A DNA stretch of 64,000 nt from an uncultured archaeon (GCA_937921685.1 CAKZUF010000020.1:52-64051); one strand, 5' to 3'. Shown: positions 10,439 to 44,687, numbered from the stretch's first letter. Numbers and translations are program-made. Notes: generated from the sequence alone by a model not told the origin.

Positions 10439-10720
10439 ATGGCGGCCGAGATTGGAAGAATAGTGGTGAAGGTTGCGGGGCGCGACGCCGGTCTAAAAGG
10501 CGTTGTTGTGAACGTCGTAGGAGGCAACCGGGTACTAGTGACAGGGCCGCCGAGCCTCACAGGGCTCAGGAGGCGGAACGTAAACATCCTCCACATCCTG
10601 CCAACACAGTACAGAGTCGAGGTGAAGCGGGACGCGAGTGACGAGGAAGTTGTCAAGGCCCTCGAGGAGAGCGGGCTTATCGACTACATGAAGAGGAGGG
10701 CTGAGATATCAAGGTGGTAG
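10439..10720 (+). CDS. rpl14e: 50S ribosomal protein L14e
   Basis: KOW-type sequence 'EIGRIVVKVAGRDAGLKGVVV'. The start could instead be 10427. Confidence 0.8.
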   Translation: MAAEIGRIVVKVAGRDAGLKGVVVNVVGGNRVLVTGPPSLTGLRRRNVNILHILPTQYRVEVKRDASDEEVVKALEESGLIDYMKRRAEISRW

Positions 10721-11771
10721 GCATACTCTTGCGGCACAGCGTCACCCCTTGGCCCGCCGAGCGAGAATTCGTGACAATTAAGGAGGCGGAAACAGACCCT
10801 CGTTACGGTTCAAGACCTGAAGACCGCCCAATCCACGACCTCCTCAACTACGGCTACGTCCCCTTGGACAAGCCTCGCGGCCCCACCAGCGGCGAGATAA
10901 CCGAGCGGGTTAGAAGACTGCTGGGAGTTGAGAGGGCCGGGCACGGCGGGACCCTAGAGCCCCGATGGGTGGGGGAGATCCCGCGGTCTCCGGGCTGCTT
11001 CCAGTCCTACTAGGAAGCGCTACCAAAGCCTCCGCAGAAATCCACACCTACCCGAAGGAGTACGTCTGCCTACTTAGGCTCCACGGAGATGTCGACGACG
11101 ACGCCCTCGAATGGGGGCTCTCACAGTTCATTGGAGAGTTCTATCAGACTCCACCAGTAAGATCCAACGTGGCCAGACAGGTCAGGAAAAAGGAGCTGTT
11201 CGAGGCAGAGGTGCTGGAGAGGGATGGGCGAGACGTCCTCTTAAGAATGATCGTGAGCGGCGGCACATACGTCCGTAAGCTCTGCCACGACTTGGGACTG
11301 GTCTTGGGTGTTGGAGCCCACATGGTTGAGCTGAGGCGTGTACGGATAGGCCCTAAGTCCGAGAGGGAGGCGGTCACAATCCAGCAGCTCCAGCGCGCAG
11401 CCTGGCAGTTCAGGGAGTGCGGGGATGAGAAGGGACTGCGGAGCCTCATAAGACCCATCGAAGAGCTCCTCGAATACATACCTAGAATAGTAGTCCTCGA
11501 CTCCGCCGTCGACGCCATCTGCCATGGCGCACCCCTAGCCAAGCCCGGAGTCGCACAAGCCGAGACAAGAATATCCAGAGGCGCAACAATTGGAATCTAC
11601 ACACTCAAGGGCGAAATAGTCGCAATAGCCAAAGCACTAAAATCCACGGAAGAAATACTGAGAGAAGAAGGAATCATAGCTAAGACCGACAGAGTCTTCA
11701 TGACACGCGGCACCTATCCTCCAAGATGGGGGAAGGGAAAATCTAAAACAAGCCAGCACACAAGATATTAG
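10714..11771 (+). CDS. cbf5: tRNA/rRNA pseudouridine synthase Cbf5 (TruB family); the coding sequence is join(10714..10957,10978..11771), interrupted by a 20-nt BHB intron
   Basis: Two overlapping ORFs in different frames (10714..11013 and 10965..11771) together give the full Cbf5. Removing 20 nt restores the conserved 'GHGGTLDPAVSGLLPV' motif. Confidence 0.85.
10958..10977 (+). other. 20-nt bulge-helix-bulge (BHB) pre-mRNA intron in cbf5
   Basis: Outer helix GGGA(10948-51)/UCCC(10979-82); 3-nt bulges AGA/AGA; central helix CCCU(10952-55)/GGGG(10972-75). The exact boundary is ambiguous by +/-1 nt because of AG repeats. Confidence 0.7.
11736..11755 (+). promoter_or_regulatory. Candidate promoter element (A/T-rich TATA-like) for tRNA-Ser(GGA), lying inside the cbf5 3' end. 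It is duplicated at 42047..42066.
   Basis: The 20-nt sequence 'GGAAAATCTAAAACAAGCCA' occurs 19-20 nt upstream of both tRNA-Ser genes. Confidence 0.45.
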
Positions 11772-11774
11772 CGG

Positions 11775-11860
11775 GCCGGGGTGGCAGAGAGGTCAATGCG
11801 CAGGCCTGGAGAGCCTGTGGCCCAATTCGGGCCGCGAGGGTTCGAATCCCTCCCCCGGCG
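11775..11860 (+). tRNA. tRNA-Ser(GGA), class II, no encoded CCA
   Basis: Acceptor GCCGGGG/CCCCGGC, anticodon loop CUGGAGA, long variable arm GGCCC-AAUUC-GGGCC, T-loop TTCGAAT. Confidence 0.9.
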
Positions 11861-12195
11861 TAACATGTAATATGGCGGTGCAGGTTTAAACACTGATATC
11901 ATATTGGTTATGAGGGGTGGATATGGTCGGGACCTTCGATTCCTTTCTGGATTCAAGAGAGTGGCGGGCTATACCGCATATTTTCTCACTATGCATAAGT
12001 AGGCCGGGAGTGTGAATGGCTTTTGGGGGAGGGTCTCGCCAGCTGAGCAAGAATACGGTGTAGCCCTAAGACTGAAACGTGTGAATGGTTTTAGCCCAAA
12101 CATTGGTATAGGGGTTTTTAATACCGAGAAGCCTCGAAAACGGTTACGCGTCTCCTTACTCGAACGTATTTTAGGTTGAGGAAAGGGCTGCGTTT

Positions 12196-12636
12196 GTGGG
12201 GTTGGCTGACAGGGCCTCGCTCTACCTCGTCATGACACTTGCGTTGTTGGGTGCCGAGGAGGGTGTAGCATTCGCGAGGAAGGTTGGAGCAGACTTTTCG
12301 GACTGTGATTTAAAATCTCTAAAGGCTTCCAGCGTACGGATGGACTATGACCCGGTAACCCGTAGCCTGTTGCCGAAAGCCATATCTCAATTCTATCAAG
12401 AGGCAGGGTTCGAGGCTCTGGAAGAGCCGGACAGTCTTGTGACCATGTTCGCATTCATGGCGCAGCTTGCGAGACAGGGTGGCATAGACTCTCTAAAAAT
12501 ACAGCACAGATTTCTTAGAGTCCATCTAATCCCAACACTGGCTTATGCAGTAGAGGTATGCAAGGGATTGAAACCATTCCTACAGATAGTTTCAGAGGAT
12601 GCCGACGACCTCAAACAAATACTAACAAAAAAATAG
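12196..12636 (+). CDS. TorD/DmsD-family molybdoenzyme maturation chaperone (redox enzyme maturation protein)
   Basis: 146 aa. 'EEPDSLVTMFAFMAQL' matches the TorD 'EPxDH...EFM' core. It lies directly upstream of the Tat-dependent molybdoenzyme genes. Confidence 0.55.
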   Translation: MGLADRASLYLVMTLALLGAEEGVAFARKVGADFSDCDLKSLKASSVRMDYDPVTRSLLPKAISQFYQEAGFEALEEPDSLVTMFAFMAQLARQGGIDSLKIQHRFLRVHLIPTLAYAVEVCKGLKPFLQIVSEDADDLKQILTKK

Positions 12637-12662
12637 CATACATTGATGTAAAATTGCGTAAC

Positions 12663-12686
12663 TATACAAAATCATAAATTTGTATA
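12663..12686 (+). promoter_or_regulatory. Perfect 8-nt inverted repeat TATACAAA-N8-TTTGTATA in the A/T-rich leader of the molybdoenzyme operon; candidate operator overlapping the TATA region
   Basis: Seen directly in the sequence. A second inverted repeat, TTGTG-N3-CACAA, lies at 12698..12710. Confidence 0.35.
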
Positions 12687-12754
12687 AACTATAACTATTT
12701 GTGTGGCACAAGGTATTTAACACGGATTTACAAAGTCTTCTTGGTGCTAGATGA

Positions 12755-13471
12755 ATGAACAATAATCAGAATGATTGTTATAATTATGCTGTAACGCGGC
12801 GTGACTTTGTTAAAAAGCTGGTGGCCTCTGCTACTGTTTCACCCATAGTATTAGGGGGGTTCTCCGGGTCTGCTGAGGCGCGTGGTGGTCGCAGGTGGGC
12901 CATGTACATCGATGTTGCCAAGTGTTATGGCTGTATGGCTTGCGTGGCGGCATGTGCGGCTGAGAATAACGTGCCAATAGGATCTTTCAGGACTCGGGTG
13001 GAGAGACATACACTCTACGATGGTGTTACGGCATTTGTCCCAATGCAGTGTAACCACTGTGTAAACCCATCCTGCGTCGAGGCTTGCCCCACAGGTGCCA
13101 TGCACAAGGGTGAAGATGGCCTCATACTTCTAGATCCTAATCTCTGTATCGCGTGTGGCGCGTGTATTCAGGCCTGCCCCTACAAGGCTGTATTTTTCAA
13201 CCCCATCAAGGGCATTCCCGACAAATGTACATTCTGCAATCACAGGATATATCAGGGTAAACTACCAGCATGTGTGGAAGTTTGCCCGACTGGGGCCAGA
13301 GTGTTTGGGGACCTTAACGACCCCAACTCTGAAATAGCCAAAATCCTGGCTAGGACGCCGACGCAGAGGCTTGGGAGGGCTACCGGAAACGAGCCGCAGA
13401 TCTATTATAGAATGGCCACTGGGGTCGTGCCGGAGATATACTACTATAAAAGGGGGAGGGGGAGCGTATGA
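12755..13471 (+). CDS. Molybdoenzyme electron-transfer subunit with 4x[4Fe-4S] (DmsB/PsrB-like) and a Tat signal
   Basis: Twin-arginine motif 'TRRDFVKKLVASA' and four Cys clusters (CxxCxxCxxxC(P)). Its stop overlaps the start of the next gene (ATGA). Confidence 0.85.
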   Translation: MNNNQNDCYNYAVTRRDFVKKLVASATVSPIVLGGFSGSAEARGGRRWAMYIDVAKCYGCMACVAACAAENNVPIGSFRTRVERHTLYDGVTAFVPMQCNHCVNPSCVEACPTGAMHKGEDGLILLDPNLCIACGACIQACPYKAVFFNPIKGIPDKCTFCNHRIYQGKLPACVEVCPTGARVFGDLNDPNSEIAKILARTPTQRLGRATGNEPQIYYRMATGVVPEIYYYKRGRGSV

Positions 13472-16400
13472 GTGCGAAAATCGATAGGAGAGAGTGCATA
13501 AAGGGCGGCGTAGCAACGGCGTCGCTTGCGGCTCTCCTAGTGGGGAACTGGGAGGCTGTAGACAGAATCATAAGACCCAAGGGGGAAAACTACGGCCCAG
13601 ATCCGCTGTACGGCGAGAATGTCAGGTACGTAAATACGTCCTGTCTAGGTTGTAACGTTAGATGCGGCATCACGGCACGTGTAGTGAGATACGGCGACAC
13701 CGAAGTTGTGGAGAGGATTGAGGGCAATCCATACCATATCTACAACAGAGCAGTGTCTTTTGAGAAACAGACTGAGAGATACGCCCCCCTTCCATATCAC
13801 ACACCCATTAAGGAAGCGATAGAGAGGTGGAGCGGAACGATATGCGCTAGAGGTGTCGACGGCATACATTACGTTTACGACCCCTACAGAGTCATTAAGC
13901 CCTTGAGGAGGGCTGGCCCTAGGGGTAGCGGCAAGTGGAAAGTAATAACTTGGGACGAATTAATCAAATATGTAACCGATGGTTGCGAAATTCCGGAAAC
14001 TGGAGAAAAGCTACCTGGACTCAAGGAATTCTTCACCTATGGCAGGTTGAGAGACGCCGGTTTCGAAGACCCCAACAAAATACTGTCAGAGATGAAGAAA
14101 GACATTGATGCCATTATATCTGTGGCTAAAGATGGTAAAAAGACTTATGACGAGCTTGTGAAATCCATAGAAGATTTCAAAACCAAATGGAGTAAGATTC
14201 TAGGTGAGAAGGGGGTAAGACTTGAAGATATACTGATAGACCCGGACAGGCCTGAATTAGGTACCAAGGCCAACATGGTGGTTTGGCTTAGAGGTAGAGG
14301 TCAAGACAACGCAGATATATTCTACAGGAGGTGGTTGTTTGCTCTAGGAAGTGTCAACTGGGCAAGACATACCTCGTCATGTCAATTAGGTTACTATGCT
14401 GGCAACTACCTCTGGTCTGGCTACTACGACATAAATCCCGACCAGAGCGCCAAAGTTCTCATAATGGCTGGTACGGAGATGGCAAGGATTCACCCCGGGG
14501 CGACGGGTCAAGGTCTCCTTATAGAGAAAGCCGCCAACGGCGAGTTGAAAATCTACTGGGTCAACCCATTGGCTCCAAGGACTCCTGCTAGAGGCAACAT
14601 TATCTGGGTGCCGGTGAAGCCTGGTGAAGATGGTGCTCTGGCTTTCGCCATGATCAGGTGGATTCTGGAGAACAAGCGATATGATGAGGCACTCCACTCG
14701 GCGCCAAACGCAGAGGCTGCTAAGAAGCTAGGCTATCCATACAGCAGTAATGCCACCTGGCTAGTGATCGTGGAGGAGGGTCATCCAAGATTTGGCGAGT
14801 TTCTAAAAGCCAAAGACATAGGGCTGGAAGACTCCGACAAATACGTGGTGTGGACTGGTGAAGGGTTTGCAGTATACGACGCGGTTGACAAAGCTGAACT
14901 CCTCTTCGAAAGCCGTGTTACGTTGGCTACTGGAGAAGTTGTAACTGTGAAAACGCCGTTCAAGATCCTTTATGATGAATCCCTAAGTCATAGTTTTGAA
15001 GAATGGGTAGCAGTCGCAAGCCCCTACGAGCGCGGCACTCCGGAGTTTACAAACTATGCCAAGACTGTGGAAGCAATGATTAGGGACTTTGTGGATGCCG
15101 CACCCATGTCTGCAACGTATCTCCACAGGGGTGTCTCTATGCATCCAAACGGGGAATACATAGTTTGGGCATACAGGACTTTAGACATTCTTATCGGCAA
15201 CTTCCACAGGAAGGGAGGTTTGCTGGGGCGGCCATCCACGACGAGCTATAACTCGCACCTGTATGATCTCAGAGATTCTGGTTTTGGTCAGCCAGTGAGG
15301 TGGGGGCCACCGATAGACAGACACAAGTACAGCTATGAAGATACTCTAGAGTACTGGCTTAGAGTTAAGCAGGCTATAAAGGAGGGCAAGAGTGGTAAGG
15401 AAGCAGTCAAGGCCGCGTTTCCAACGAAGAGGCCTTGGTTCCCCAACACGCCTGAGGAGATATATTCAGAGTTATTTGCCGGGATTGCTGAAAGGTATCC
15501 ATACCCGATAGGTGTTTTGATACTCTTTTACGCAAACCCAGTCATATCTGCCAACTACGGCCTCAAGTTTGTTGAAGTGCTTAAAGACACCAAGAAACTA
15601 CCTCTGTTTATAGGAATTACAACGACGATAAACGAGACCTATCTATACGCCGACTTTATCGTGCCTGATACGACGTACTTGGAGACCGGGCTTAGCGGGG
15701 TCCAGTTCCTGTATGCGGGCGGGCTCGGATACGTCAGAGCCGAGTCGTGGCGTTCCCCCGTCATAATGCCTCTTACACAGCAGATAGGCACATGTCCAAA
15801 CGGACACCCAAGGTATGCCTCCATGTGGGAGTTCCTCATAGACGTGGCTAAGACTTTAAAGATGCCGGGCTACGGTGAAAAGGCGTTCCGAGGCGTCGCC
15901 GAGAAAAAGTATGAGGGGCAATGGTTTGCCATGCACTGTTTCTGGGAATACATCATGAGAGTATACGCCAACGGCGCGCTACATGCCAAAGACCTCAAAA
16001 TAATACCCGAGAACGTGCCGGACGAGGAGGTGCGGTTTGTGGAGAGGAACTACCCCATTGCACAGTTCAGAGACATACTGCCGCCAGAGGAGTGGAGGTA
16101 CGTTGCCTATGCACTCGCTAGGGGTGGCGTCTTTACGAGATATGAAGACTCTTTCGATGAGAAGGGTTGGTCAAAGAGGTCTGTGCCAGGAGATAAGATT
16201 CTCAAGCTTTGGAACGATAAGCTGGCTAAGACTCGGAATAGCGTTACTGGAGAGAAGTTCTATGGAGGGCCTAAATACTTCCCACCGGCAACCTATGCCC
16301 CCGCCGCTCAGGCGCCTGAGAAGAGGGACAAGTGGCTTCCAGGCACGCCCTTGAGACAGATCTACAGGAAGGAGGAGTGGCCGCTAACACACGTATTCAG

Positions 16401-17181
16401 CTCCGGGCCTCTATTCACAAAACACAGAAGCCAGTTCTACTACTGGCTGAAGCAAATGATGCCAGAGAACTTCGTGGTGCTGAATCCCTTGGACGCAGCT
16501 AAGGCCGGCGTAGAGACTGGAGACATTGTCAAGATGGAGACTCCTTGGGGGTCTCTAGAGGCTCCGGCAGTGGTATCTCCCCTAGTTGCGCCAGGAGTGC
16601 TGTATATTCCCTATGGGATGGGTAGGTGGGTTGAAACGGTTGTATCTAAGCCCAAATTTGAGGCGAGGGGTTTCGAGAACTTCACCCAAGAGCTTCCAGA
16701 AAAGGTGGAAATACCTGAAGAGGCTGTGAACCCTGTGAGACATCTGCCTGCGCTTGCGAAGAAAATATTGTTTACCAAGAGCCCGGCAGAGTATTATGAG
16801 GGTGGCCTATCAGTCGACAGGTGGAGATTCAGTGGTATCACATCAAATCCCATACAGGCTACAGATCCATCGCTGGACAACTGGCCGATGGTGAGTTGGA
16901 TAGGTGGAGGCCAAGCATACTTCGACACCCCGGCACGTGTAGTCAAGACTGGAAAGAGGCACGAATTCGAGGGGCTCAGCGTCGAGTTTCATGAATATCC
17001 ACTACCTGAACCACCAACTTCACAAATAGGCTTAAATCTCTGGAAGAGGTTCAAACATGAATTCACCAAACCATTCATCTATGCCGCATCGACTGTAGCC
17101 CTTATACTAGGGATAGCTCACATTGTGAAGGAGAGGAAGGCCAGAAAAGCCTCTATCAAGGAGGTGGAGAGAAATGGCTGA
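13468..17181 (+). CDS. Molybdopterin oxidoreductase catalytic subunit (DMSO reductase/CISM family), unusually long with a C-terminal TM helix; substrate unknown
   Basis: 1237 aa. Tat motif 'DRRECIKGGVATASLAALL', N-terminal FeS0 motif 'CLGCNVRCG', and a hydrophobic C-terminal segment 'FIYAASTVALILGIAHIV'. Confidence 0.75.
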   Translation: MSAKIDRRECIKGGVATASLAALLVGNWEAVDRIIRPKGENYGPDPLYGENVRYVNTSCLGCNVRCGITARVVRYGDTEVVERIEGNPYHIYNRAVSFEKQTERYAPLPYHTPIKEAIERWSGTICARGVDGIHYVYDPYRVIKPLRRAGPRGSGKWKVITWDELIKYVTDGCEIPETGEKLPGLKEFFTYGRLRDAGFEDPNKILSEMKKDIDAIISVAKDGKKTYDELVKSIEDFKTKWSKILGEKGVRLEDILIDPDRPELGTKANMVVWLRGRGQDNADIFYRRWLFALGSVNWARHTSSCQLGYYAGNYLWSGYYDINPDQSAKVLIMAGTEMARIHPGATGQGLLIEKAANGELKIYWVNPLAPRTPARGNIIWVPVKPGEDGALAFAMIRWILENKRYDEALHSAPNAEAAKKLGYPYSSNATWLVIVEEGHPRFGEFLKAKDIGLEDSDKYVVWTGEGFAVYDAVDKAELLFESRVTLATGEVVTVKTPFKILYDESLSHSFEEWVAVASPYERGTPEFTNYAKTVEAMIRDFVDAAPMSATYLHRGVSMHPNGEYIVWAYRTLDILIGNFHRKGGLLGRPSTTSYNSHLYDLRDSGFGQPVRWGPPIDRHKYSYEDTLEYWLRVKQAIKEGKSGKEAVKAAFPTKRPWFPNTPEEIYSELFAGIAERYPYPIGVLILFYANPVISANYGLKFVEVLKDTKKLPLFIGITTTINETYLYADFIVPDTTYLETGLSGVQFLYAGGLGYVRAESWRSPVIMPLTQQIGTCPNGHPRYASMWEFLIDVAKTLKMPGYGEKAFRGVAEKKYEGQWFAMHCFWEYIMRVYANGALHAKDLKIIPENVPDEEVRFVERNYPIAQFRDILPPEEWRYVAYALARGGVFTRYEDSFDEKGWSKRSVPGDKILKLWNDKLAKTRNSVTGEKFYGGPKYFPPATYAPAAQAPEKRDKWLPGTPLRQIYRKEEWPLTHVFSSGPLFTKHRSQFYYWLKQMMPENFVVLNPLDAAKAGVETGDIVKMETPWGSLEAPAVVSPLVAPGVLYIPYGMGRWVETVVSKPKFEARGFENFTQELPEKVEIPEEAVNPVRHLPALAKKILFTKSPAEYYEGGLSVDRWRFSGITSNPIQATDPSLDNWPMVSWIGGGQAYFDTPARVVKTGKRHEFEGLSVEFHEYPLPEPPTSQIGLNLWKRFKHEFTKPFIYAASTVALILGIAHIVKERKARKASIKEVERNG

Positions 17182-17839
17182 ACTAGAAAGGGTCGTCAGG
17201 TGGGATAGGCTCGCACGCGCGATACACTGGTTGTTTGTCGTAAGTGTCGGCATCGGAATAATAACAGGGTTGCCTACCTTAGATGGTGAAAGGTTTAATG
17301 CATTGATTTATCTGGTTGGAGGGCGAGAGCTACGGGCAGTTCTTCACCACTACTTCATTACAGCGGCGCTGAGCGCGGCTTTCGTCCTTATACTGATCAG
17401 GTTCGCTATAGTTGTCAGAAGGCCCCTTGAGGAGACTGGGGAAGAATGGGTACCTACAACCAAAGATTTCAAAGACTCACTAACAATAGCCCTGAACTGG
17501 CTCGGATTCAAAAGGCCGAGGCCGCCGATAGGATTCCACCACCCTCTAGAGAAATACTACATCCACATAATGCATCTTGGATTGCTGCTACTTGGTATAA
17601 GCGGGATACCGCTAGCATTCTTAGACGTAGGGCCGTACAGGTGGTTGCTCCTGCTGACCCACGACCTAGGACTGGTAATTCTGATACCTCCTCTCGTAGG
17701 ACACATAATGCTTGCTGTAAACCCTGTCAACTGGGAAACATTGAAAGCGGTATTTATCGATGGTAAAGTTTCAGTCGCGTGGGCTAAAAAACACCATCCA
17801 GCATGGAAGGTAACAATAACTACTAAAGAAGAAAAATAA
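17174..17839 (+). CDS. Di-haem cytochrome b membrane anchor (FdnI/HybB-like)
   Basis: 221 aa with about 5 TM helices and conserved His residues in the TM helices (HWLF, LHHYF, HIMHLG, VGHIM). It overlaps the catalytic subunit gene by 8 nt. Confidence 0.6.
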   Translation: MAELERVVRWDRLARAIHWLFVVSVGIGIITGLPTLDGERFNALIYLVGGRELRAVLHHYFITAALSAAFVLILIRFAIVVRRPLEETGEEWVPTTKDFKDSLTIALNWLGFKRPRPPIGFHHPLEKYYIHIMHLGLLLLGISGIPLAFLDVGPYRWLLLLTHDLGLVILIPPLVGHIMLAVNPVNWETLKAVFIDGKVSVAWAKKHHPAWKVTITTKEEK

Positions 17840-17985
17840 ACTAAAAGTTCAGCTGCAAAACAACGGTACACAACATATTTGGCAGAAGCGTGAGATTGCG
17901 CACTCCCAAAAACAGAAGAAGCCAATCCACCAAACCCCTGCCTATTTCCCCCAAACCCCCTCAACACCCATTTGTAACATAAAAA

Positions 17986-18078
17986 TGCGGCGGGCGGGAT
18001 TTGAACCCGCGACCCCCAGCGTGGCAGGCTTCCACGCAGCTTTGTGCTTGGTGTCCTACCAGGCTAGACTACCGCCGC
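17986..18078 (-). tRNA. tRNA-Gly(GCC) with a 19-nt intron (18030..18048) at non-canonical position 29/30; no encoded CCA
   Basis: Removing the intron gives a mature 74-nt tRNA: acceptor GCGGCGG/CCGCCGC, anticodon stem CCAGC/GCUGG, loop CUGCCAC, T-loop UUCAAAU. ORF 17985..18167 overlaps it and is spurious. Confidence 0.85.
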
Positions 18079-18111: not shown

Positions 18112-18189
18112 TTCTAGAGCTGGTTGGTGGTGCTGAGGGGTTGTCATGTTTATTTGTTTGGGGTTAATGGGGGTTTTCGGTGCTTGGGT

Positions 18190-18912
18190 TTGGCTGTGGC
18201 TGTTGAGGCGGAGAGTGTCTGGAAGTTTTTCGGCGAGAAGGCGGCTTTGAAGGGGGTTAGCTTCAGGGTTGGCGTTGGAGAGGTTTTCGGCTTGATCGGC
18301 CCCAACGGTGCCGGCAAGACCACTTGTTTCCGGATCATCGCTACGATTTTGAGGCCTAGTAGGGGTGGTGCAAGGATATTCGGCCTCGACGTGGTGAAGG
18401 ATGCTCAGGCGGTGAGGCGTTTAATATCGTATCTTCCAGAGGAGGCTGGTGTGTATAGGGGCCTTAGTGGTGTGGAGTACATTCGATTCCTTGCGAGGGT
18501 CTATAACAGGGATGAGGGGGAGGCGCTGCGGGAGGCTGAGGAAGTCTCTGGGCTCGGTGAAGCGCTTCGGGCTAGAATGGGCTCGTACAGTCTAGGGATG
18601 AGGAGGCGTATTCTCCTGGCAGGGACACTGATCGCGCGTCCGAGGCTAGCCATCCTAGATGAGCCGACAGCTGGCTTAGATGTTATGCACGCGGTATATG
18701 TGAGAGGGGTGATAAGGAAGTATTCGCGCCAAGGTATGACTTTTCTTATCTCGAGCCATAACATGCTGGAGGTGGAGTATCTCTGTGATAGGATCGCATT
18801 TATCGATGGGGGAGTGATAATCGCGGAGGGTGAGCCGAAATCCCTGATGGAGCGCGCGGGAGCAGAGAATCTTGAAGAGCTCTTCCTATCACTGAGGGGG
18901 GGTGGTAGATGA
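18190..18912 (+). CDS. ABC transporter ATP-binding protein (ABC-2/exporter type)
   Basis: Walker A 'GPNGAGKTT', signature 'LSGGMRRR'-like 'YSLGMRRRILLA', Walker B 'ILDEPTAGLD'. A TTG/GTG start at 18190-18196 is preferred, because the longer ORF overlaps the tRNA-Gly promoter. Confidence 0.8.
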   Translation: MAVAVEAESVWKFFGEKAALKGVSFRVGVGEVFGLIGPNGAGKTTCFRIIATILRPSRGGARIFGLDVVKDAQAVRRLISYLPEEAGVYRGLSGVEYIRFLARVYNRDEGEALREAEEVSGLGEALRARMGSYSLGMRRRILLAGTLIARPRLAILDEPTAGLDVMHAVYVRGVIRKYSRQGMTFLISSHNMLEVEYLCDRIAFIDGGVIIAEGEPKSLMERAGAENLEELFLSLRGGGR

Positions 18913-20225
18913 GTTTTAGTGCCCTTGTTTGGAAAGAGTTGCGCGAGCTGCTAGCCGAGAAAACAATCCTTATAGGCGTTTTACTTATGCCACTCATTCT
19001 CTTCCCACTCCTCGGATTCACGATGAGCGCGGGATCCTCCGCAGCAGGGAGGGCACAGCCGGGATACGAGGTTGCAGTACTGGACAGAGATGGTGGATGG
19101 GCGTCCCACGAATTATTAGAGACCCTGGGTAGAACCGGCGTCAGATTAAAGCCCGCTCCGAGTGGAGGTGACCCGCGCGAGATTCTGGAGGGCCTAGATT
19201 CGGGGCTTCTCATAATCATTCCCGAGGGCTTCTCCCTGAACATCACCAACTACAGGCAAGCCTTAGTCCAACTATACTACCGCCTCGAGAGGCTCTCGAT
19301 TAGTGAGCTGCAAGGCCTCTCAAACTTCTTAGCCCTCTTCCACCGTTTATCAGCCAATCTCGGCGAGAGGCTTGCCAGCAGTGATGGAATCGATGTGAGT
19401 TTCTATAAGTCGCCATTCACGGTCTCAGAATTTATCGTCTATCAAGGTCAAGTGTTAGGCGGGGTGTCCACTGCGGTTCTCCAGCCCGTGCTCTATCTCT
19501 CCCTGATAATACCGCTCGGAATCTTCATACTCGCTGTAACAGCCGGTAGCGTCTCGGCCACGAGCATAGCTTTAGAGAAGGAAGCGAAAACTCTCGAGAT
19601 ACTTCTGACCCTGCCCATACACAGATTGAAGCTCCTTGCAGCTAAGCTTCTAGGCTCGGTCATCTTGGCGGCTCTTGGGGGAGCCTCATTCATGATAGGA
19701 TTCCTCCTCTACTTCCGGGGGATGATCTCTACAATGCGTCAACCCTTAGGTGACGGTGGTCAAACAAGTGCTGAAATGTTGGCTACGGTTTACAGCTTGT
19801 CTGCACCGGTCCTTATTCTCTTGGGCTTGATCGTGATAATTTCGCTTGCGCTGACGCTTGCGGTCGGAATTCTGGCAGGCATCCTGGCTGGGGACGTGCG
19901 TGGAGGGCAACAGCTCGCATCCCTCCTGCTAGCCCTACTCTTCCTCCCCCCATTCATCCTACAGCTGCTCGGCGGGGTTGGCGCCCTTGACTCCGCATCC
20001 CGCACTATAATGCTGTTGAACCCTGTGACACACGTGTTTCTAGCACTAGAGTCGGTCACATCCTCTGATTTACCAGCCGCCATAACACACATGCTGGTTA
20101 CCCTCGCTTGTCTCGTGTTATTGCTGAGCGTTGCGGCGTGGATCTTTAGCGGCGAGAGGCTGATATCACTGAGGGTCAGGCTGGTGCGGAAAGGTGTCCT
20201 CGATACCGCGCGGAGGGCGGGATAG
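18909..20225 (+). CDS. ABC-2 family transporter permease
   Basis: 438 aa. It has an N-terminal TM helix, a periplasmic-type loop and a C-terminal bundle of 5 TM helices. It overlaps the ATPase stop. Confidence 0.7.
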   Translation: MSFSALVWKELRELLAEKTILIGVLLMPLILFPLLGFTMSAGSSAAGRAQPGYEVAVLDRDGGWASHELLETLGRTGVRLKPAPSGGDPREILEGLDSGLLIIIPEGFSLNITNYRQALVQLYYRLERLSISELQGLSNFLALFHRLSANLGERLASSDGIDVSFYKSPFTVSEFIVYQGQVLGGVSTAVLQPVLYLSLIIPLGIFILAVTAGSVSATSIALEKEAKTLEILLTLPIHRLKLLAAKLLGSVILAALGGASFMIGFLLYFRGMISTMRQPLGDGGQTSAEMLATVYSLSAPVLILLGLIVIISLALTLAVGILAGILAGDVRGGQQLASLLLALLFLPPFILQLLGGVGALDSASRTIMLLNPVTHVFLALESVTSSDLPAAITHMLVTLACLVLLLSVAAWIFSGERLISLRVRLVRKGVLDTARRAG

Positions 20226-20269
20226 TAGAAGATATTTACTATCGCCAGCACCTACCTGAGACGGGACTC

Positions 20270-21865
20270 TTGCTGTGGGAGGTATTAGCGGCGGTAGCGC
20301 TATCTTGGGCTAGAATTGCTGCAGCCCTGGCCCTATCAGTCTTAGCCGCCATTATCGTTGGGATATATTCGGGGATGAGCAGGCGGGTTGATAGGGTTGC
20401 GATCCCCATCCTAGACGTTCTCCAGAGCGTGCCTATACTGGGCTTCTTCCCGCTGGCAGTCTATGTGCTGGCACGAGCCGTACCGATCCTAGGCTATGAG
20501 CTCGCATCGATCTTTCTCATATTTACCTGCACGTTCTGGAATCTGGCATTCGCTGTCTATGAAGGGGCTCGATCAATTCCACAGTCCATGATCGAGGTTG
20601 CGGAGCTCAGCAAGCTGTCACTGAGAGATCGGCTTGGGAAAATCTATGTGCCGGCTGTTTTCCCCAAGATTGTAGACCAGTTGCCCGCGAGTTTAGCAAA
20701 TGCTTTCTACTTCTTAGCAGCCAGCGAGGTAATAGCTCTCGGAGAGGCTGAGGTAAGGGTGGCGGGTATAGGGACGCTCATCCTGAGATATCTGGAGTTG
20801 GGATACCATGCAGGCATCGCGATCGGTCTACTTGCGACGGCCCTCAGCATTATCGCCGTATATCTCCTCATCCTGATGCCTCTCATCTCCTATTCAGACA
20901 GGTATAGGTTTGACATAGCTCAGCCTCCAGCGGGGCAGAGGACGCCGATGATCATGGAGCTCTATACCCGCATCAAGTCTATTCACGCCCCACTGAAACT
21001 GGAGCCTAGGCGTATTGCAGGGCTTACCCACCGCGTTTTCCCAACCCAGCTCGTCAACATAAGGTATGTGGGGAGCGACATCAAGCGGCTAATATTCATA
21101 GTCTTTATTATTGTTCTGCTCGTTTTCGCAGGGCCGAGGATATATGCTAACATAGGTGATGTGTGGACTGCGGTTTCCAGCGTGGCGGGTGCTGGTGTGA
21201 GGCTAGGGTTGCTGAGCATCGGCGAGGCACTCGCCTACTCCTTCTCCCGCGTATTAGTATGCTTAGCGCTTATGCTTGCAATCAGCCTACCCATAGCCTA
21301 TATCATTTCTGAGAAGCCACGTGTAAGAAATACTCTCCTCCCCGTACTCCAGATCGTCGCCTCTCTCCCCTCGCCGCTAATATTCCCAATCATCTCGGGC
21401 TTCTTCGAGGGCGGCACACTCTCAAGAGAGTTAGGGGCGATACTGCTGATGTCGCTTGGCTCGGTGTGGTATGTTTTCTACTCAACACTAGGCGGCTTCA
21501 ACAAGGTCCACGAAGAGTATCGAGAGCTTGCCAGACTGTATAAACTCTCAGGGTTCAACAAGTTCAGGTATATTTACCTCCCATTCGCGACCCCATCGAT
21601 GGTGACGGGGTTGATAACTGCTACGGGTGGTGCATGGAACACTGTGATAGTTGCGGAGAGGCTCGGTGAGGGGGGGAGAATATTTGAGATCCAAACTCCG
21701 GGTCTAGGTAAGCTGATGTCCACGCTAGCGGAAATGGCAGACACCCCGGGCCTAGTGTTCACAGTTATAGTTATGACGGTCTTCGTGATACTCGTCAACA
21801 GAATATTGTGGCGAAACCTCTACGACTATTCTATAAAGGCGCTGAGGATCCATGAGCAACTCTGA
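20270..21865 (+). CDS. Fused (duplicated) ABC permease, binding-protein-dependent type (NitT/TauT-like)
   Basis: 531 aa with two EAA-like loops ('EVAELSKLSLRDRLGKIYVPAVFP' and 'EYRELARLYKLSGFNKFRYIYLPFATP'). Confidence 0.7.
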   Translation: MLWEVLAAVALSWARIAAALALSVLAAIIVGIYSGMSRRVDRVAIPILDVLQSVPILGFFPLAVYVLARAVPILGYELASIFLIFTCTFWNLAFAVYEGARSIPQSMIEVAELSKLSLRDRLGKIYVPAVFPKIVDQLPASLANAFYFLAASEVIALGEAEVRVAGIGTLILRYLELGYHAGIAIGLLATALSIIAVYLLILMPLISYSDRYRFDIAQPPAGQRTPMIMELYTRIKSIHAPLKLEPRRIAGLTHRVFPTQLVNIRYVGSDIKRLIFIVFIIVLLVFAGPRIYANIGDVWTAVSSVAGAGVRLGLLSIGEALAYSFSRVLVCLALMLAISLPIAYIISEKPRVRNTLLPVLQIVASLPSPLIFPIISGFFEGGTLSRELGAILLMSLGSVWYVFYSTLGGFNKVHEEYRELARLYKLSGFNKFRYIYLPFATPSMVTGLITATGGAWNTVIVAERLGEGGRIFEIQTPGLGKLMSTLAEMADTPGLVFTVIVMTVFVILVNRILWRNLYDYSIKALRIHEQL

Positions 21866-22622
21866 AATACTATTGGAACTCAGGAATGTGACACACGGGT
21901 ATAGCCTGAGGGCTGGGTCGACGCTCAAGGTTATAGAGAACCTGAACATACAGGTGGGGTATGGAGAGTTTCTGGGGATAGTGGGTCCGAGTGGATGCGG
22001 GAAGAGCACTATACTCCGGATTATGGCCGGACTCATCAAGCCCCTCTCAGGAGCCGTGATATTTCGCGGCGAGGTTTTGAACGGCACTACACCGCGCATA
22101 TCCCTAATGCATCAGATCCCGACGCTGCTCCCCTGGCTTACAGTTAGAGAGAACATATACCTCGCCCTAACGTCTAGGAGGGATTTGTCTGAGCGCGAGA
22201 AGCAGTTAAAAGTTTCTGAACTTCTTGAGCTTGTTGAGCTTAGCGGCTACGGATCTGCTTACCCCTATGAGCTGAGCGGGGGTATGAGGCAGAGGGTTGC
22301 GCTTGCCAGAGCGCTTGTCACAGACCCCGACCTCCTCCTCTTGGACGAGCCTTTCAGCAACCTAGACCCACTGACCTCGCTCAGCTTAATTCGCGAGATA
22401 GAGGGTATGTGGTTTGACACGACACTTCCGCCTATCTCTGTAGTGATGGTGTCTCACAACATTGAGGAGGTTGTCATGCTTGCCGACAGGGTGATTGTGC
22501 TGGGGGGTGGGCGGCCTGCAAAGATTCTAGCTGAGGTTCCCATAGAACTCCCACGGCCGAGGAACAAGAAGTCGGAGGAGTTCTATAGGCTTGTCGACGA
22601 GCTTTTCTCCCTGATTAGCTAG
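21852..22622 (+). CDS. ABC transporter ATP-binding protein (NitT/TauT family)
   Basis: Walker A 'GPSGCGKST', signature 'LSGGMRQRVALARAL', Walker B 'LLLDEPFSNLD'. It overlaps the permease gene by 14 nt. Confidence 0.85.
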   Translation: MSNSEILLELRNVTHGYSLRAGSTLKVIENLNIQVGYGEFLGIVGPSGCGKSTILRIMAGLIKPLSGAVIFRGEVLNGTTPRISLMHQIPTLLPWLTVRENIYLALTSRRDLSEREKQLKVSELLELVELSGYGSAYPYELSGGMRQRVALARALVTDPDLLLLDEPFSNLDPLTSLSLIREIEGMWFDTTLPPISVVMVSHNIEEVVMLADRVIVLGGGRPAKILAEVPIELPRPRNKKSEEFYRLVDELFSLIS

Positions 22623-42086: not shown

Positions 42087-42172
42087 GCCGGGGTGGCAGA
42101 GAGGATAATGCGCAGGCCTTGAGAGCCTGTGGCCCACTTCGGGCCGCGAGGGTTCGAATCCCTCCCCCGGCG
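42087..42172 (+). tRNA. tRNA-Ser(UGA), class II, no encoded CCA
   Basis: It is nearly identical to the tRNA at 11775..11860 apart from the D-loop, anticodon loop (CUUGAGA) and variable loop. Confidence 0.9.
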
Positions 42173-42232
42173 CACCTTGTAGACAGTCTGGCTGTGTCCG
42201 TCTTCTCGGAAAACTCGCCATTATTTCGACGT

Positions 42233-44551
42233 CTACCGTCTATGCTGGGAAGACTTTAGGGCTGCTATTGCCGCCTGCCCTAATGCTATACCCCCATCGC
42301 CCGCCGGCACCTCTTCAGGCATAAGAACATCCACGCCCCTCCCCTCGAGAGCCTCCATCACGCCCTGAACTAGGTACTCGTTTACAGCAGCTCCACCTGA
42401 CAGGACCAAGAGCCTGCACCCCCCTAATATTCGGCCAGCCACTAGTCCTAGACCATATCCTACGGCGTGCTGCACCATGTAGCCTATCATTCGCCTATCA
42501 GTGCCGCATCTCAAGAGGTCTAGGGCCTGCAGAAGTATCTCGGCTGTATCTACGACGTATAGGCCATTGTCTCTGATGTGCACCTTGAGCCTCTCTGTGG
42601 TTGGCTTTGAATTGTCCTCGAGCATGATTGCCGGCTCACCCTCATAGGTCCGCCGGCTGCAGAAGCCCAGCATTACAGATGCGGCATCTAGCACCCTTCC
42701 GGTGCTCGAAGTGAGTGGTGGGGCACCTTCAAGCTGATTCAGCACGATGTTAAACTCCTCCCACCCCCTCCTAAACACTCTCTCCACGATTTTCAGCTCG
42801 CGAAAGATTTCTGTGAGCTCCTCTCTTTGCAGCTTGTCAGAGAGTATCCCTGCCAACATTCTTGCAGGATATTCGACTGCTAGGTCCCCTCCGGGCATTT
42901 TATGGGGCTTGAGGCATCCCACCCTCCTGAACCCGTTTAGACTCGCGAGAAGTACCTCACCACCCCATGCTGTACCATCCTCTCCAAGCCCGACACCGTC
43001 AACCGCAACCCCTACAACCTCCTCCTCACAGATGCCATGCTCTGCCAGGACGGCGGCTATGTGGGCCCAGTGGTGTTGAATCTTAAGCAATTCTGCACCG
43101 TATTTTCTAGCCCACTCTTCTGCGAGGAGGGTTGAGGGGTAGAGTGGGTGTAGGTCGGCAGCAATGACCGACGACTCGACAGGTATCTGATAGGTACTTA
43201 TCAGCAGTCCCAGATATTTTTCGAGGTCGAGGAAGGATCCATACTCGTCCACGTCGCCTATAAACTGTGTCAGAACAACCTTGTCGTCAAAAGCCACTGC
43301 CCCGGCGCTCTGCAGCATGGCACCAAACGCCACAACCTCCTTGGCGGCGCGGAATGGTAGCTGAAGCCACTTGGGCGCGTAGCCCCTCCCCCTTCTCAGC
43401 ATCGTAACCCGGCCTGCCGTGAACCGTACCACGCTATCATCCACCCTATTCACGATCACTCTATTGTGCGTGAGGAAATAGTCGACTATTCCGCGGAGCC
43501 TGTCGAGGGCCTCGTCGTCTCTGGTGCACATCGGCTCGTTGTGGGGGTTACCGCTCGTCATTATGGCGTACTTATCCCTTATCCGTGAGAGGAGGAGGTA
43601 GTGTAGGCCGGTGTAGGGGAGGAAGACTCCGAGCTTCCTCAGATTAGGGGCGACTAGACGTGATATGGGCGCGTCCTCAAGCAGGGGCAAAAGAAGTATA
43701 GGCTTCTCAGGCGAGTCAAGTATTCTGACAGCCTCAGGACCCAGTTCTACGAGGCGCGACACAGTATCTATGTCTAAGCACATGACGGCGAAGGGCTTAG
43801 TGGGTCTCCTCTTCCTCGAGCGAAGCTCCGCCACGACTCTATCATCTGTAGCCAAGGCTGCAATGTGGAATCCGCCCAACCCCTTCACGGCCACGATGTT
43901 TCCAGAGTCGATCAGCCCCGCAGCCTCCTCCACAGCATCTATACCATCGGCCAAGACCTCCCCCCTACTACTCAGGAGACGGACACGCGGGCCGCAGGCT
44001 GGGCAGCTGATCCCCTGAGCGTGAAACCTCCTCTCATTCTCAGGGTCAGAGTATTCTCTAAGACAGTCCGGGCATAGGGGGAAGTCCCTCATTGCCGTGT
44101 TATCCCTGTCGTATGGTATACTGTATATCATGGAGTACCGCGGCCCACAGAAGGCGCACGAGTTGAAAGGATATAGATGCCAACGCGTCTCCGAGAGTAT
44201 TTCCTCTAGACAGTCCCTGCATATCGAGAAGTCTGGTGGAATAATTGATCTAAAGTACGCCGACGAGTCGCTCTGCTCAATCCTAAAATCAGAGTAGCCC
44301 TTAGGGGTTGTCTGCATAATAGAGTACTCGTCTATTCGCGCCTTGTCAGGCTTAGACTCCCACAGCAGTTTGATAAACTCCTCCAACCTCTCAGACTCAC
44401 CTTCCACGTGAATCTCGACACCGCTTCCGCCCACGTTCTTAACATAACCAGTTACACCGGCCCGCCTAGCAATCCTAAAAACGAAAGGTCTAAACGCGAC
44501 GCCCTGCACAATCCCTGAGAGCCTCAGCCTGACGGCCTTCAAGAGACCCAC
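42233..44551 (-). CDS. hypF: [NiFe]-hydrogenase maturation carbamoyltransferase HypF
   Basis: Acylphosphatase N-terminus, two Zn-finger pairs (CRDCLEE...CAFCGPRY; CPDCLRE...CPACGPR), plus YrdC- and Kae1-like domains. 772 aa. Confidence 0.9.
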   Translation of the reverse strand: MGLLKAVRLRLSGIVQGVAFRPFVFRIARRAGVTGYVKNVGGSGVEIHVEGESERLEEFIKLLWESKPDKARIDEYSIMQTTPKGYSDFRIEQSDSSAYFRSIIPPDFSICRDCLEEILSETRWHLYPFNSCAFCGPRYSMIYSIPYDRDNTAMRDFPLCPDCLREYSDPENERRFHAQGISCPACGPRVRLLSSRGEVLADGIDAVEEAAGLIDSGNIVAVKGLGGFHIAALATDDRVVAELRSRKRRPTKPFAVMCLDIDTVSRLVELGPEAVRILDSPEKPILLLPLLEDAPISRLVAPNLRKLGVFLPYTGLHYLLLSRIRDKYAIMTSGNPHNEPMCTRDDEALDRLRGIVDYFLTHNRVIVNRVDDSVVRFTAGRVTMLRRGRGYAPKWLQLPFRAAKEVVAFGAMLQSAGAVAFDDKVVLTQFIGDVDEYGSFLDLEKYLGLLISTYQIPVESSVIAADLHPLYPSTLLAEEWARKYGAELLKIQHHWAHIAAVLAEHGICEEEVVGVAVDGVGLGEDGTAWGGEVLLASLNGFRRVGCLKPHKMPGGDLAVEYPARMLAGILSDKLQREELTEIFRELKIVERVFRRGWEEFNIVLNQLEGAPPLTSSTGRVLDAASVMLGFCSRRTYEGEPAIMLEDNSKPTTERLKVHIRDNGLYVVDTAEILLQALDLLRCGTDRRMIGYMVQHAVGYGLGLVAGRILGGCRLLVLSGGAAVNEYLVQGVMEALEGRGVDVLMPEEVPAGDGGIALGQAAIAALKSSQHRR

Positions 44552-44687
44552 CGATAAGCCGGGACAGGAGATTGTCTACCAATATTATCAAGTGTTGCGG
44601 TATATTAGGATGATAACCTTATTAAATATTAGAGATGTTGTTATATCTGTGGGACAGCAAGCAGACTTAAGATATCTCACAAAGAAG

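Follow-up and report, generated by a model that had tools for sequence, protein, structure and literature searches.

In complex iron–sulfur molybdoenzymes (CISM), the tetrathionate reductase (Ttr) family is defined by the gene order ttrBCA together with twin-arginine translocation (Tat) signals on both TtrA and TtrB (Duval 2008; 2026 Shewanella paper), and its NrfD-type membrane subunit TtrC, with nine membrane-spanning helices, carries no cofactor. An archaeal Ttr-like clade is described in Duval 2008, Wells 2020/2023 and Haja 2020. TtrA of Pyrobaculum aerophilum (PAE1265) is reported to be induced by arsenate and to act as a respiratory arsenate reductase upon heterologous expression, for which Pyrococcus furiosus served as host; this organism has one Ttr-type enzyme according to the literature. 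In a figure legend of the 2026 Shewanella study, a "GR" motif separates arsenic-binding enzymes from bona fide Ttr, which lack it. The membrane subunit of thiosulfate reductase, PhsC, has five transmembrane (TM) helices and two predicted haems b, and in bacteria an iron–sulfur (FeS) protein with a C-terminal tail plus an FdnI-related cytochrome b forms a recurrent Tat-dependent module, with no molybdopterin protein found in a survey of tail-anchored Tat substrates (Gallego-Parrilla et al. 2024). Here, a ttr-like operon lacking ttrC (positions 12196-17839) is described in a 64,000-nucleotide stretch of DNA from an uncultured archaeon (GCA_937921685.1, CAKZUF010000020.1:52-64051), referred to below as the window.

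The operon probably encodes an outward-facing, quinone-coupled Mo/W-bis(pyranopterin guanine dinucleotide) oxidoreductase of the Ttr-like clade whose membrane module has been exchanged. It appears to be a chimera, in which ttrD-ttrB-ttrA is fused to a borrowed tail and followed by a cytochrome b gene, because ttrC is gone, the tail matches the anchors of FeS subunits from operons resembling those for polysulfide and thiosulfate reductases (Psr/Phs-like operons), and relatives of the cytochrome b occur only in such operons.

Operon organization and loss of ttrC

Four open reading frames (ORFs) in the order ttrD-ttrB-ttrA'-cytb lie on the plus strand, with exactly the coordinates given in the initial annotation. 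They encode a TorD/NarJ-family Tat-proofreading chaperone (ttrD, 12196-12636, 146 aa), a 4x[4Fe-4S] subunit that bears a separate Tat signal (ttrB, 12755-13471, 238 aa), a MopB catalytic subunit (ttrA', full ORF 13468-17181, 1237 aa), and an FdnI/PhsC-type dihaem cytochrome b with four TM helices (17174-17839, 221 aa). These four identities had been read from the sequence at the outset, and matches in Pfam, NCBIfam and profile searches bear them out. The translational coupling proposed at the same time is also supported, as ttrB and ttrA overlap by the 4 nt ATGA (13468-13471) and ttrA and the cytochrome b gene by 8 nt (17174-17181). No frameshift or stop interrupts the 5.6 kb of the operon.

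In the two closest loci, L002 and L003, with TtrA proteins 80% and 75% identical to that of the window, the order is ttrB, a 377-aa NrfD-type ttrC, and ttrA. A scan of 185,579 species-representative genomes for loci of the clade showed an NrfD-type ORF of at least 317 aa, abutting ttrA and lying between ttrB and ttrA, in each of the 45 loci that included the upstream region, and a homologue of the window's cytochrome b or tail in none of these 45. Within the 64-kb window, no TtrC/NrfD homologue was detected either by tblastn with TtrC or with a hidden Markov model (HMM) of 45 TtrC sequences (E <= 10). What is left is a putative deletion scar at the end of ttrB (13448-13471, plus strand): its last codons, KRGRGSV and stop, match the 3′ end of ttrC in relatives (KRGERV or KREGRV and stop), and the DNA preceding the ttrA start, AAGGGGGAGGGGGAGCGTATGAGTGCGAAA, matches the ttrC 3′ end found there, AAGAGAGA-GGGGAGGGTATGAGCGCGAAA. 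The remnant comprises about seven codons fused to ttrB and retains the ATGA overlap of ttrC with ttrA. Because both the ttrB 3′ end and the DNA before ttrA match the ttrC 3′ end of relatives, ttrC appears to have been deleted from an ancestor with the BCA order.

Several bacterial Ttr-like proteins of about 1400-1430 aa (P0094 and P0102, and by Pfam also P0096, P0103 and P0110) combine an NrfD (TtrC) part with TtrA, with a Tat-like hydrophobic segment between the two. They were considered as a precedent for a membrane part at the C terminus and set aside, because on reading their NrfD domain proved to be N-terminal, making them TtrC-TtrA fusions.

A membrane tail on the catalytic subunit

Canonical TtrA proteins of the clade end in ...xPxI(I/V)W, as read in 12 homologues, and the same ending or close variants are found in 30 complete ORFs from related loci of archaea and thermophiles. 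The window TtrA continues for about 64 residues beyond this point, an extension present in no homologue examined. DNA homology with canonical ttrA reaches to about position 16985, where the ancestral stop codon is gone, so that the gene can be divided into a core with homology to the Ttr-like clade (residues 1-1172, 13468-16983) and a putatively grafted tail (residues 1173-1237, 16984-17181, both on the plus strand). The tail consists of a linker of about 30 residues, a predicted TM helix at residues 1202-1221 (nt 17071-17130) and a basic, presumably cytoplasmic end. This helix, the sole TtrA segment with a Kyte-Doolittle value of at least 1.6 in a 19-residue window, is followed directly by KERKARK. 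The initial annotation had proposed a C-terminal TM helix on the catalytic subunit, and hydropathy agrees; such a helix is atypical for the clade.

When the tail was compared by phmmer with 7112 six-frame ORFs from the fetched loci, the only matches were FeS subunits adjoining homologues of the cytochrome b (E = 6e-7 to 2e-4). Reciprocally, an HMM built from seven such FeS tails and searched against 7394 ORFs gave a single match outside the training set, namely residues 1171-1227 of the window TtrA (E = 1.7e-9). The tail is colinear with the FeS C termini (window, SVEFHEYPLPEPPTSQIGLNLWKRFKHEFTKPFIYAASTVALILGIAHIVKERKARK) at 29-37% identity. The family consensus is alelvkyPvrkedq-lityetwslikksivkPlleaaalaavvLGliHiiRErrkek, and its motif W..K...KP...LG..H..(K/R)ER is kept in the window protein. 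The tail together with the cytochrome b would thus appear to be a module imported from a Psr/Phs-like operon.

An RR signal, one C-terminal TM helix and a positive cytoplasmic end, the features by which Tat-dependent tail-anchored proteins are recognized, all occur in the window TtrA, suggesting that its tail may be inserted into the membrane in a Tat-dependent manner. The same combination, with an FdnI-related cytochrome b as partner, is seen in HyaA, HybO, FdnH and HybA; the tail-anchored proteins of this kind are FeS or hydrogenase small subunits and include no molybdopterin protein (Gallego-Parrilla et al. 2024). No precedent was found for a tail-anchored catalytic subunit. The FdnH tail was also considered as a possible sequence relative and rejected, as it has no sequence similarity to the window tail and offers a parallel of design only.

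Cytochrome b and Psr/Phs-like operons

The product of the last gene scores 45.9 bits against PF01292 (cut-off, 30.1 bits), has four hydrophobic helices by hydropathy, and aligns end to end with Escherichia coli FdnI (E = 9e-6). Four histidines, H18, H58, H163 and H177, align with FdnI H18, H57, H155 and H169 and are invariant in nine members of the family; they are the predicted haem ligands and, with the PF01292 match, uphold the earlier reading of the gene as a dihaem cytochrome b. An AlphaFold2 (AF2) model (pLDDT 79) has a TM-score of 0.68 to FdnI in the E. coli FdnGHI structure (PDB 1kqf_C), with the hydrogenase-1 cytochrome b a distant second. The loop motif GFHHPLEK aligns with FdnI GKYNAGQK, a segment that we take to hold residues of the FdnI quinone site, and the C-terminal motif GKVS..WAKKHHP.W is common to FdnI. 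The likeness to FdnGHI thus covers the cytochrome fold, the four haem-His positions and the general design, in which a Tat-exported partner holds the cytochrome by one C-terminal TM helix; in the E. coli enzyme, however, that helix is on FdnH, and the complex works as a dehydrogenase whose catalytic subunit is an FdhG of the Sec/Cys type.

Close relatives of the cytochrome b are few, with eight at 46-54% identity. Ten loci with context were available, seven from protein look-ups and three from a scan of Joint Genome Institute (JGI) metagenomes, and in all ten a gene for a four-cluster FeS protein of 259-277 aa with a C-terminal TM helix lies directly upstream. In nine of the ten, the FeS gene is preceded by a MopB gene of about 830 aa, whose best matches are PhsA in NCBIfam and Thermus thermophilus PsrA in the PDB. 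These Psr/Phs-like operons (L004, L007, L010, L013, L097, L099 and L100-L102), which by their membrane subunit are nearest to Salmonella PhsABC thiosulfate reductase, share with the window a cytochrome b (46-54% identical), a C-terminal tail (29-37%) and the placement of the tail-coding region immediately 5′ of the cytochrome b gene. In contrast to the window, their tail is on an FeS subunit without a Tat signal, the catalytic subunit is of the Psr/Phs type (about 830 aa), and the gene order is A-B-C.

A hot-spring metagenome locus (L098:616-2138) encodes an FeS protein that carries both a Tat signal of its own and this C-terminal tail, then the cytochrome b, with no adjoining MopB gene; it is a stand-alone two-protein module as described by Gallego-Parrilla et al. 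2024.

The catalytic core and its clade

Pfam and NCBIfam identify the large subunit as a MopB catalytic subunit and the ttrB product as a four-cluster ferredoxin. TtrA is by far the best NCBIfam match to the large subunit (E = 4.7e-126), followed by PhsA (2e-38); NarG is not among its 19 NCBIfam matches, placing the protein outside the NarGHI group. The score against the TtrA equivalog model NF011567 is 421.9 bits, far under the cut-off of 1750 bits for bona fide TtrA, as is that of the P. aerophilum protein (445 bits). A search of 5.8 billion proteins returned 91 homologues at 50-82% identity, the full-length ones being 1114-1178 aa long and 50-80% identical, from Pyrobaculum, Thermoproteales, Sulfolobales and Fervidicoccaceae metagenome-assembled genomes (MAGs), Aeropyrum, Caldarchaeales (Caldarchaeum), Archaeoglobus, Hydrogenivirga and Calditerrivibrio. 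In a neighbor-joining tree, the window TtrA nests among Thermoprotei sequences, well apart from the TtrAs of Caldarchaeales (57-61% identical), and it preserves every clade-invariant column. It is 69% identical across 1167 aa to AAL63359.1 of P. aerophilum IM2, which we infer to be PAE1265 from the single Ttr-type enzyme that the literature gives this organism.

The locus had initially been taken for an under-described CISM clade, a view at odds with the tight placement of the protein (69-80% identity) within the published archaeal Ttr-like clade. Nor are the double twin-arginine signals unusual, as had been supposed, since they are a published hallmark of Ttr (Duval 2008; 2026 Shewanella paper). 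The catalytic subunit had also been described as 30-50% longer than Psr/Ttr/Dms/Arr-type enzymes. It is indeed longer, but by about 21% relative to a TtrA of about 1020 aa (the NCBIfam model has 1022 positions), and most of the extra length is clade-wide: because clade members are already 1133-1178 aa long, only the last 64 or so residues are peculiar to the window protein.

The two motifs noted earlier on the catalytic subunit are both present, the Tat motif DRRECIKG with RR at residues 7-8 and the FS0 motif CLGCNVRCG. The FS0 cysteines are C59-x2-C62-x3-C66 plus a fourth, C126, which is invariant in the clade. The Mo-ligand position was looked up in an alignment with the arsenate reductase ArrA, in which Cys305 (nt 14380-14382) falls on the Mo-ligand Cys; it is invariant in the clade and is a candidate Mo/W ligand. 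In the same alignment, R275-G-R277-G-Q (RGRGQ, residues 275-279, nt 14290-14304), also clade-invariant, falls on ArrA R163-G-R165-Y166. Of the residues that we take to be the arsenate ligands of ArrA, the window protein retains R165 and H189, has T in place of S190, and lacks Y166 and K198. An AF2 model of residues 38-1237 (pLDDT 87, pTM 0.88) has Shewanella ArrA as its closest solved fold, with a target-normalised TM-score of 0.68; NarG (0.43-0.45) ranks below both ArrA and PsrA, and the solved structures searched include no Ttr as comparator. The clustering in a known family that had been named as decisive was thus found; the comparison of pocket residues is partial, through the ArrA alignment, because no Ttr structure exists.

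Taken together, the catalytic core appears to be an ordinary archaeal Ttr-like one. With Ttr as a whole, the operon shares the TtrA grouping, the double Tat signals and the TtrD chaperone, and it departs from it in lacking the BCA order and an NrfD-type TtrC. It resembles Salmonella TtrBCA in having TtrA as its best NCBIfam model, ttrB before ttrA, Tat signals on both subunits and a Cys metal ligand; it differs in being distant (422 vs 1750 bits), in carrying the GR motif, and in lacking TtrC, and while the Salmonella TtrC anchor is cofactor-free, the window anchor has predicted haems. The likeness to the P. aerophilum enzyme extends to the RGRGQ and HTS(A/S)CQ motifs, a Tat-bearing TtrB and a TtrD-type chaperone nearby, whereas the Pyrobaculum loci (L016, L017) differ in encoding an NrfD-type TtrC between ttrB and ttrA, in lacking a cytochrome b, and in having a TtrA that ends in ...IVW. 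Both the 69% identity to the P. aerophilum enzyme and the GR motif, which sets the window TtrA apart from bona fide tetrathionate reductases, agree with the archaeal Ttr-like arsenate reductases. As a substrate, arsenate would be at least as likely as tetrathionate.

Chaperone and FeS subunit

As a single sequence, the ttrD product scores 21 bits against the Pfam family Nitrate_red_del, just under its cut-off of 22.2 bits. Nine of 11 chaperone homologues from related loci match this family (PF02613), and a profile of the 11 matches Archaeoglobus fulgidus TtrD (AF0160; PDB 2xol_A and 2idg_A) with E = 6.5e-17. Because of this match to a solved TtrD, the first gene is assigned as ttrD; its product is 67-72% identical to those of the partner genes in L002 and L003.

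TtrB, 71% identical to its L002 counterpart, contains 16 cysteines, which make up four ferredoxin motifs and do not vary across the alignment. The RRDFVKK Tat motif reported for this subunit is present as VTRRDFVKK, with R15-R16 encoded at nt 12797-12802, and TtrB and TtrA of L002 and L003 likewise both carry Tat signals. The earlier view of a small, non-NarH-like FeS partner is confirmed by its length of 238 aa, against about 500 aa for NarH, and by its best NCBIfam matches, DsrO, TtrB and NrfC. At position 12776, the window differs from the corresponding Logan contig by a nonsynonymous change (Cys8 to Arg) that precedes the RR motif and falls within the n-region of the signal peptide of TtrB. 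The real ttrB start codon may lie further downstream than annotated.

The AT-rich spacer between ttrD and ttrB contains a perfect palindrome, TATACAAA-N8-TTTGTATA (12663-12686, unstranded), one half of which is kept in the ttrD-ttrB spacer of L002 (AACTATATAAATCCATCAATTTGTAT). It is a possible promoter or regulator site. A scan for sigma-70 promoters and intrinsic terminators, which is ill-suited to archaea, gave counts equal to those of shuffled controls.

Genomic setting

The whole operon is carried on a 6.12-kb island (11866-17985) between a tRNA-Ser(GGA) gene on the left (11775-11860, plus strand; homology to related genomes ends at 11865) and a tRNA-Leu(CAA) gene on the right (17986-18078, minus strand). 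The segment is identified as an island because two related loci, L095 and L096 (SecY 95% identical), are syntenic on both flanks at 85-87% DNA identity and have 111 bp between the same tRNA genes. From its SecY, which is 95% identical to that of Ca. Calditenuaceae HR02, the host is assigned by sequence to the Calditenuaceae/Caldarchaeales. GC content at third codon positions falls into layers: 0.618 +/- 0.021 for host genes (n = 16), 0.52-0.56 for ttrD, ttrB and ttrA, as in L002, 0.44 for the tail and 0.49 for the cytochrome b gene. No att-like direct repeats, duplicated tRNA end or integrase was found at the island borders. An imperfect 21-nt inverted repeat (76% complementary; 12010-12030 and 17947-17967) lies just inside the island ends and may be due to chance.

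Evidence for the locus comes from one MAG contig and one Logan contig, both from sequencing run ERR9287632. The Logan assembly of this run places the entire operon on an 8.3-kb contig that is 99.9% identical to the window, with eight differences; the four that fall in ttrA are all synonymous.

Outside the ttr cluster, the ABC transporter genes to the right of the island (18124-22622) belong to the host backbone and are syntenic in L095 and L096. Genes for the [NiFe]-hydrogenase maturation proteins HypF (42233-44551, minus strand) and HypD (44592-45818, plus strand) adjoin a second tRNA-Ser gene (42087-42173), and the host is likely to possess a hydrogenase, which could deliver electrons to the quinone pool. 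HypF also adjoins the donor-type operon in L007, which was considered as a close relative of the host and rejected; the shared HypF is uninformative because the two proteins are only 51% identical. To the left of the island, the cbf5 pseudouridine-synthase gene (10714-11771) is broken into two ORFs that overlap and lie in different frames, as it is in L095 and L096. Removal of 20 nt, GAGCCCCGATGGGTGGGGGA (10957-10976), restores a single ORF of 346 aa with the canonical GHGGTLDPAVSGLLPV motif, and the interruption is probably a short archaeal mRNA intron. A crenarchaeal mRNA intron in cbf5 is known.

Proposed origin and mechanism

Comparison with related loci indicates that the operon descends from a canonical ttr(D)BCA cluster like those of Pyrobaculum and the Thermoproteales. 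From it, ttrC, encoding a haem-free, NrfD-type, quinol-oxidising anchor, was removed, leaving a few 3′ codons on ttrB. With its stop codon lost, ttrA now reads into the last 64 or so codons of a Psr/Phs-like FeS-subunit gene, followed by the FdnI-like dihaem cytochrome b gene of the donor-type operon.

In the cell, TtrD would hold the signal peptide of TtrA until the cofactor is inserted, and TtrA and TtrB would be exported folded and separately by Tat. The C-terminal tail of TtrA would remain in the membrane (N-out, C-in) and pack on the four-helix cytochrome b as FdnH does on FdnI. These steps of export and anchoring are modeled on the Tat motifs, the TtrD match, and the precedents of FdnGHI and other tail-anchored proteins. 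Electrons from quinol at a site on the cytoplasmic side would pass through haem bC and haem bP to the four TtrB clusters, FS0 and Mo/W (Cys305), and would reduce an acceptor outside the cell, most likely arsenate, with tetrathionate or a related S-S compound next.

Quinol oxidation by the canonical TtrC enzyme is believed to take place on the outer side of the membrane. With the exchanged anchor, turnover would be electrogenic, as proposed for PhsABC, because electrons would now cross the membrane. For PhsABC itself, Stoffels et al. are said to have put forward in 2012 a reverse loop, in which the reductase direction consumes membrane potential. By analogy, an FdnI/PhsC-type anchor on the window enzyme would use membrane potential in the reductase direction and generate it in the opposite one, as in Fdn-N.

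Several observations weigh against this account. It concerns a single case, as no second organism with the window architecture occurs in any collection searched. Homology of the tail is significant in context-restricted searches only and finds no unbiased support at a larger scale, because the 69-aa tail, searched by phmmer against 1.84 billion representative proteins, had one match, to a junk repeat protein. The packing of the tail on cytochrome b and the docking of TtrB on an FdnI-type cytochrome are predictions from analogy, and E. coli FdnI and Salmonella PhsC are the only models used here for placing the quinone site and for assigning a direction to electron flow. Finally, an anchor that consumes proton motive force (pmf) would give no evident advantage with high-potential acceptors such as arsenate and tetrathionate.

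Alternative explanations

An assembly or sequencing artefact, whether a chimeric join between ttrA and the tail or between ttrB and ttrA, or a frameshift error through the stop, would account for an architecture met only once, in a MAG whose sequencing run also yielded the closest canonical ttrBCA (L002, 80%). It is nevertheless very improbable. The tail is fused in frame, the coding sequence closes with the 8-nt overlap that couples it to the cytochrome b gene, and nowhere is there a donor copy of 100% identity (the closest share 54% for the cytochrome b and 37% for the tail); together, these points make an assembly chimera unlikely. Moreover, L002 is only about 75% identical in DNA, too distant for a k-mer join, the independent Logan assembly repeats the 8.3-kb structure with eight single-nucleotide polymorphisms (SNPs) and thus a distinct consensus, and error would have to produce two separate, function-compatible rearrangements. 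A real locus could still represent a CISM clade that is new and under-described and whose oxidant is unknown, with size, tail and double Tat signals as clade characters. NCBIfam scores far under every equivalog cut-off (for TtrA, 422 vs 1750 bits) and a best fold match to ArrA (TM-score 0.68), with no solved Ttr structure, lean that way. Set against them are a populous clade already published as archaeal Ttr or Ttr-like arsenate reductases, a functionally studied member at about 69% identity, a definition of Ttr that already contains double Tat signals and B before A, and the absence of the tail from all relatives examined; a new clade is accordingly quite unlikely.

Two further possibilities, each unlikely although less so, accept the chimera and question what it does. 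It might be a nonfunctional, decaying leftover, with the loss of ttrC having disabled the enzyme and the read-through into tail and cytochrome b being a neutral accident on an island acquired recently. In keeping with this, the locus has been met only once, the two closest genomes lack the island, and a fit between TtrB and a foreign cytochrome is a prediction. Decay is not evident, however, because the three structural proteins retain all their cofactor ligands (the 16 TtrB cysteines, FS0, Cys305 and the four haem histidines) as well as the clade-invariant positions. The absence of frameshifts and stops, both coupling overlaps, the family motif of the tail and the exclusively synonymous ttrA SNPs between the assemblies likewise speak against a relic, and since tail and cytochrome b have diverged by 30-54% from any donor without decay, the module would seem to have been long maintained. 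Alternatively, the same complex might run in reverse, oxidising an external reductant such as arsenite or thiosulfate and reducing quinone at the cytoplasmic face in a pmf-generating half redox loop, as in formate dehydrogenase-N. The classical partners of FdnI-type cytochromes are periplasmic dehydrogenases, FdnI is the window cytochrome's best match in both sequence and fold, with the hydrogenase-1 cytochrome b as second fold match, and the GFHHPLEK and GKVS..WAKKHHP.W motifs have their counterparts in FdnI; Arr and Arx, too, demonstrate that enzymes of this class can work in both directions. Yet the nearest relatives of the cytochrome b are in reductase-type Psr/Phs-like operons, the studied P. 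aerophilum relative is a reductase, and oxidation of arsenite or thiosulfate with menaquinone-type quinones would be strongly uphill.

Implications

Automated pipelines would label this enzyme a tetrathionate reductase, while it has a Phs-like anchor and the closest relative studied so far is reported to be an arsenate reductase. The modularity of CISM enzymes, with their catalytic subunit, four-cluster ferredoxin and anchor, is usually deduced from deep phylogeny, whereas the putative swap described here has legible seams: the ttrC scar, the lost stop, a tail moved from FeS to catalytic subunit, three compositional layers and an empty site in sister genomes. It is possible, although doubtful at present, that the window TtrA is the first case of a molybdopterin catalytic subunit held in the membrane by a C-terminal tail that Tat inserts, and that the operon represents a natural anchor swap turning an electroneutral quinol:acceptor reductase into one coupled to membrane potential. 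If so, the swap would change the substrates, or the direction, open to the same catalytic dimer. If the complex works, the tail and cytochrome b would constitute a portable membrane module, indifferent to which exported subunit carries the tail, and the L002-type and window enzymes would form a matched pair for the effect of the anchor on the energetics of the same core.

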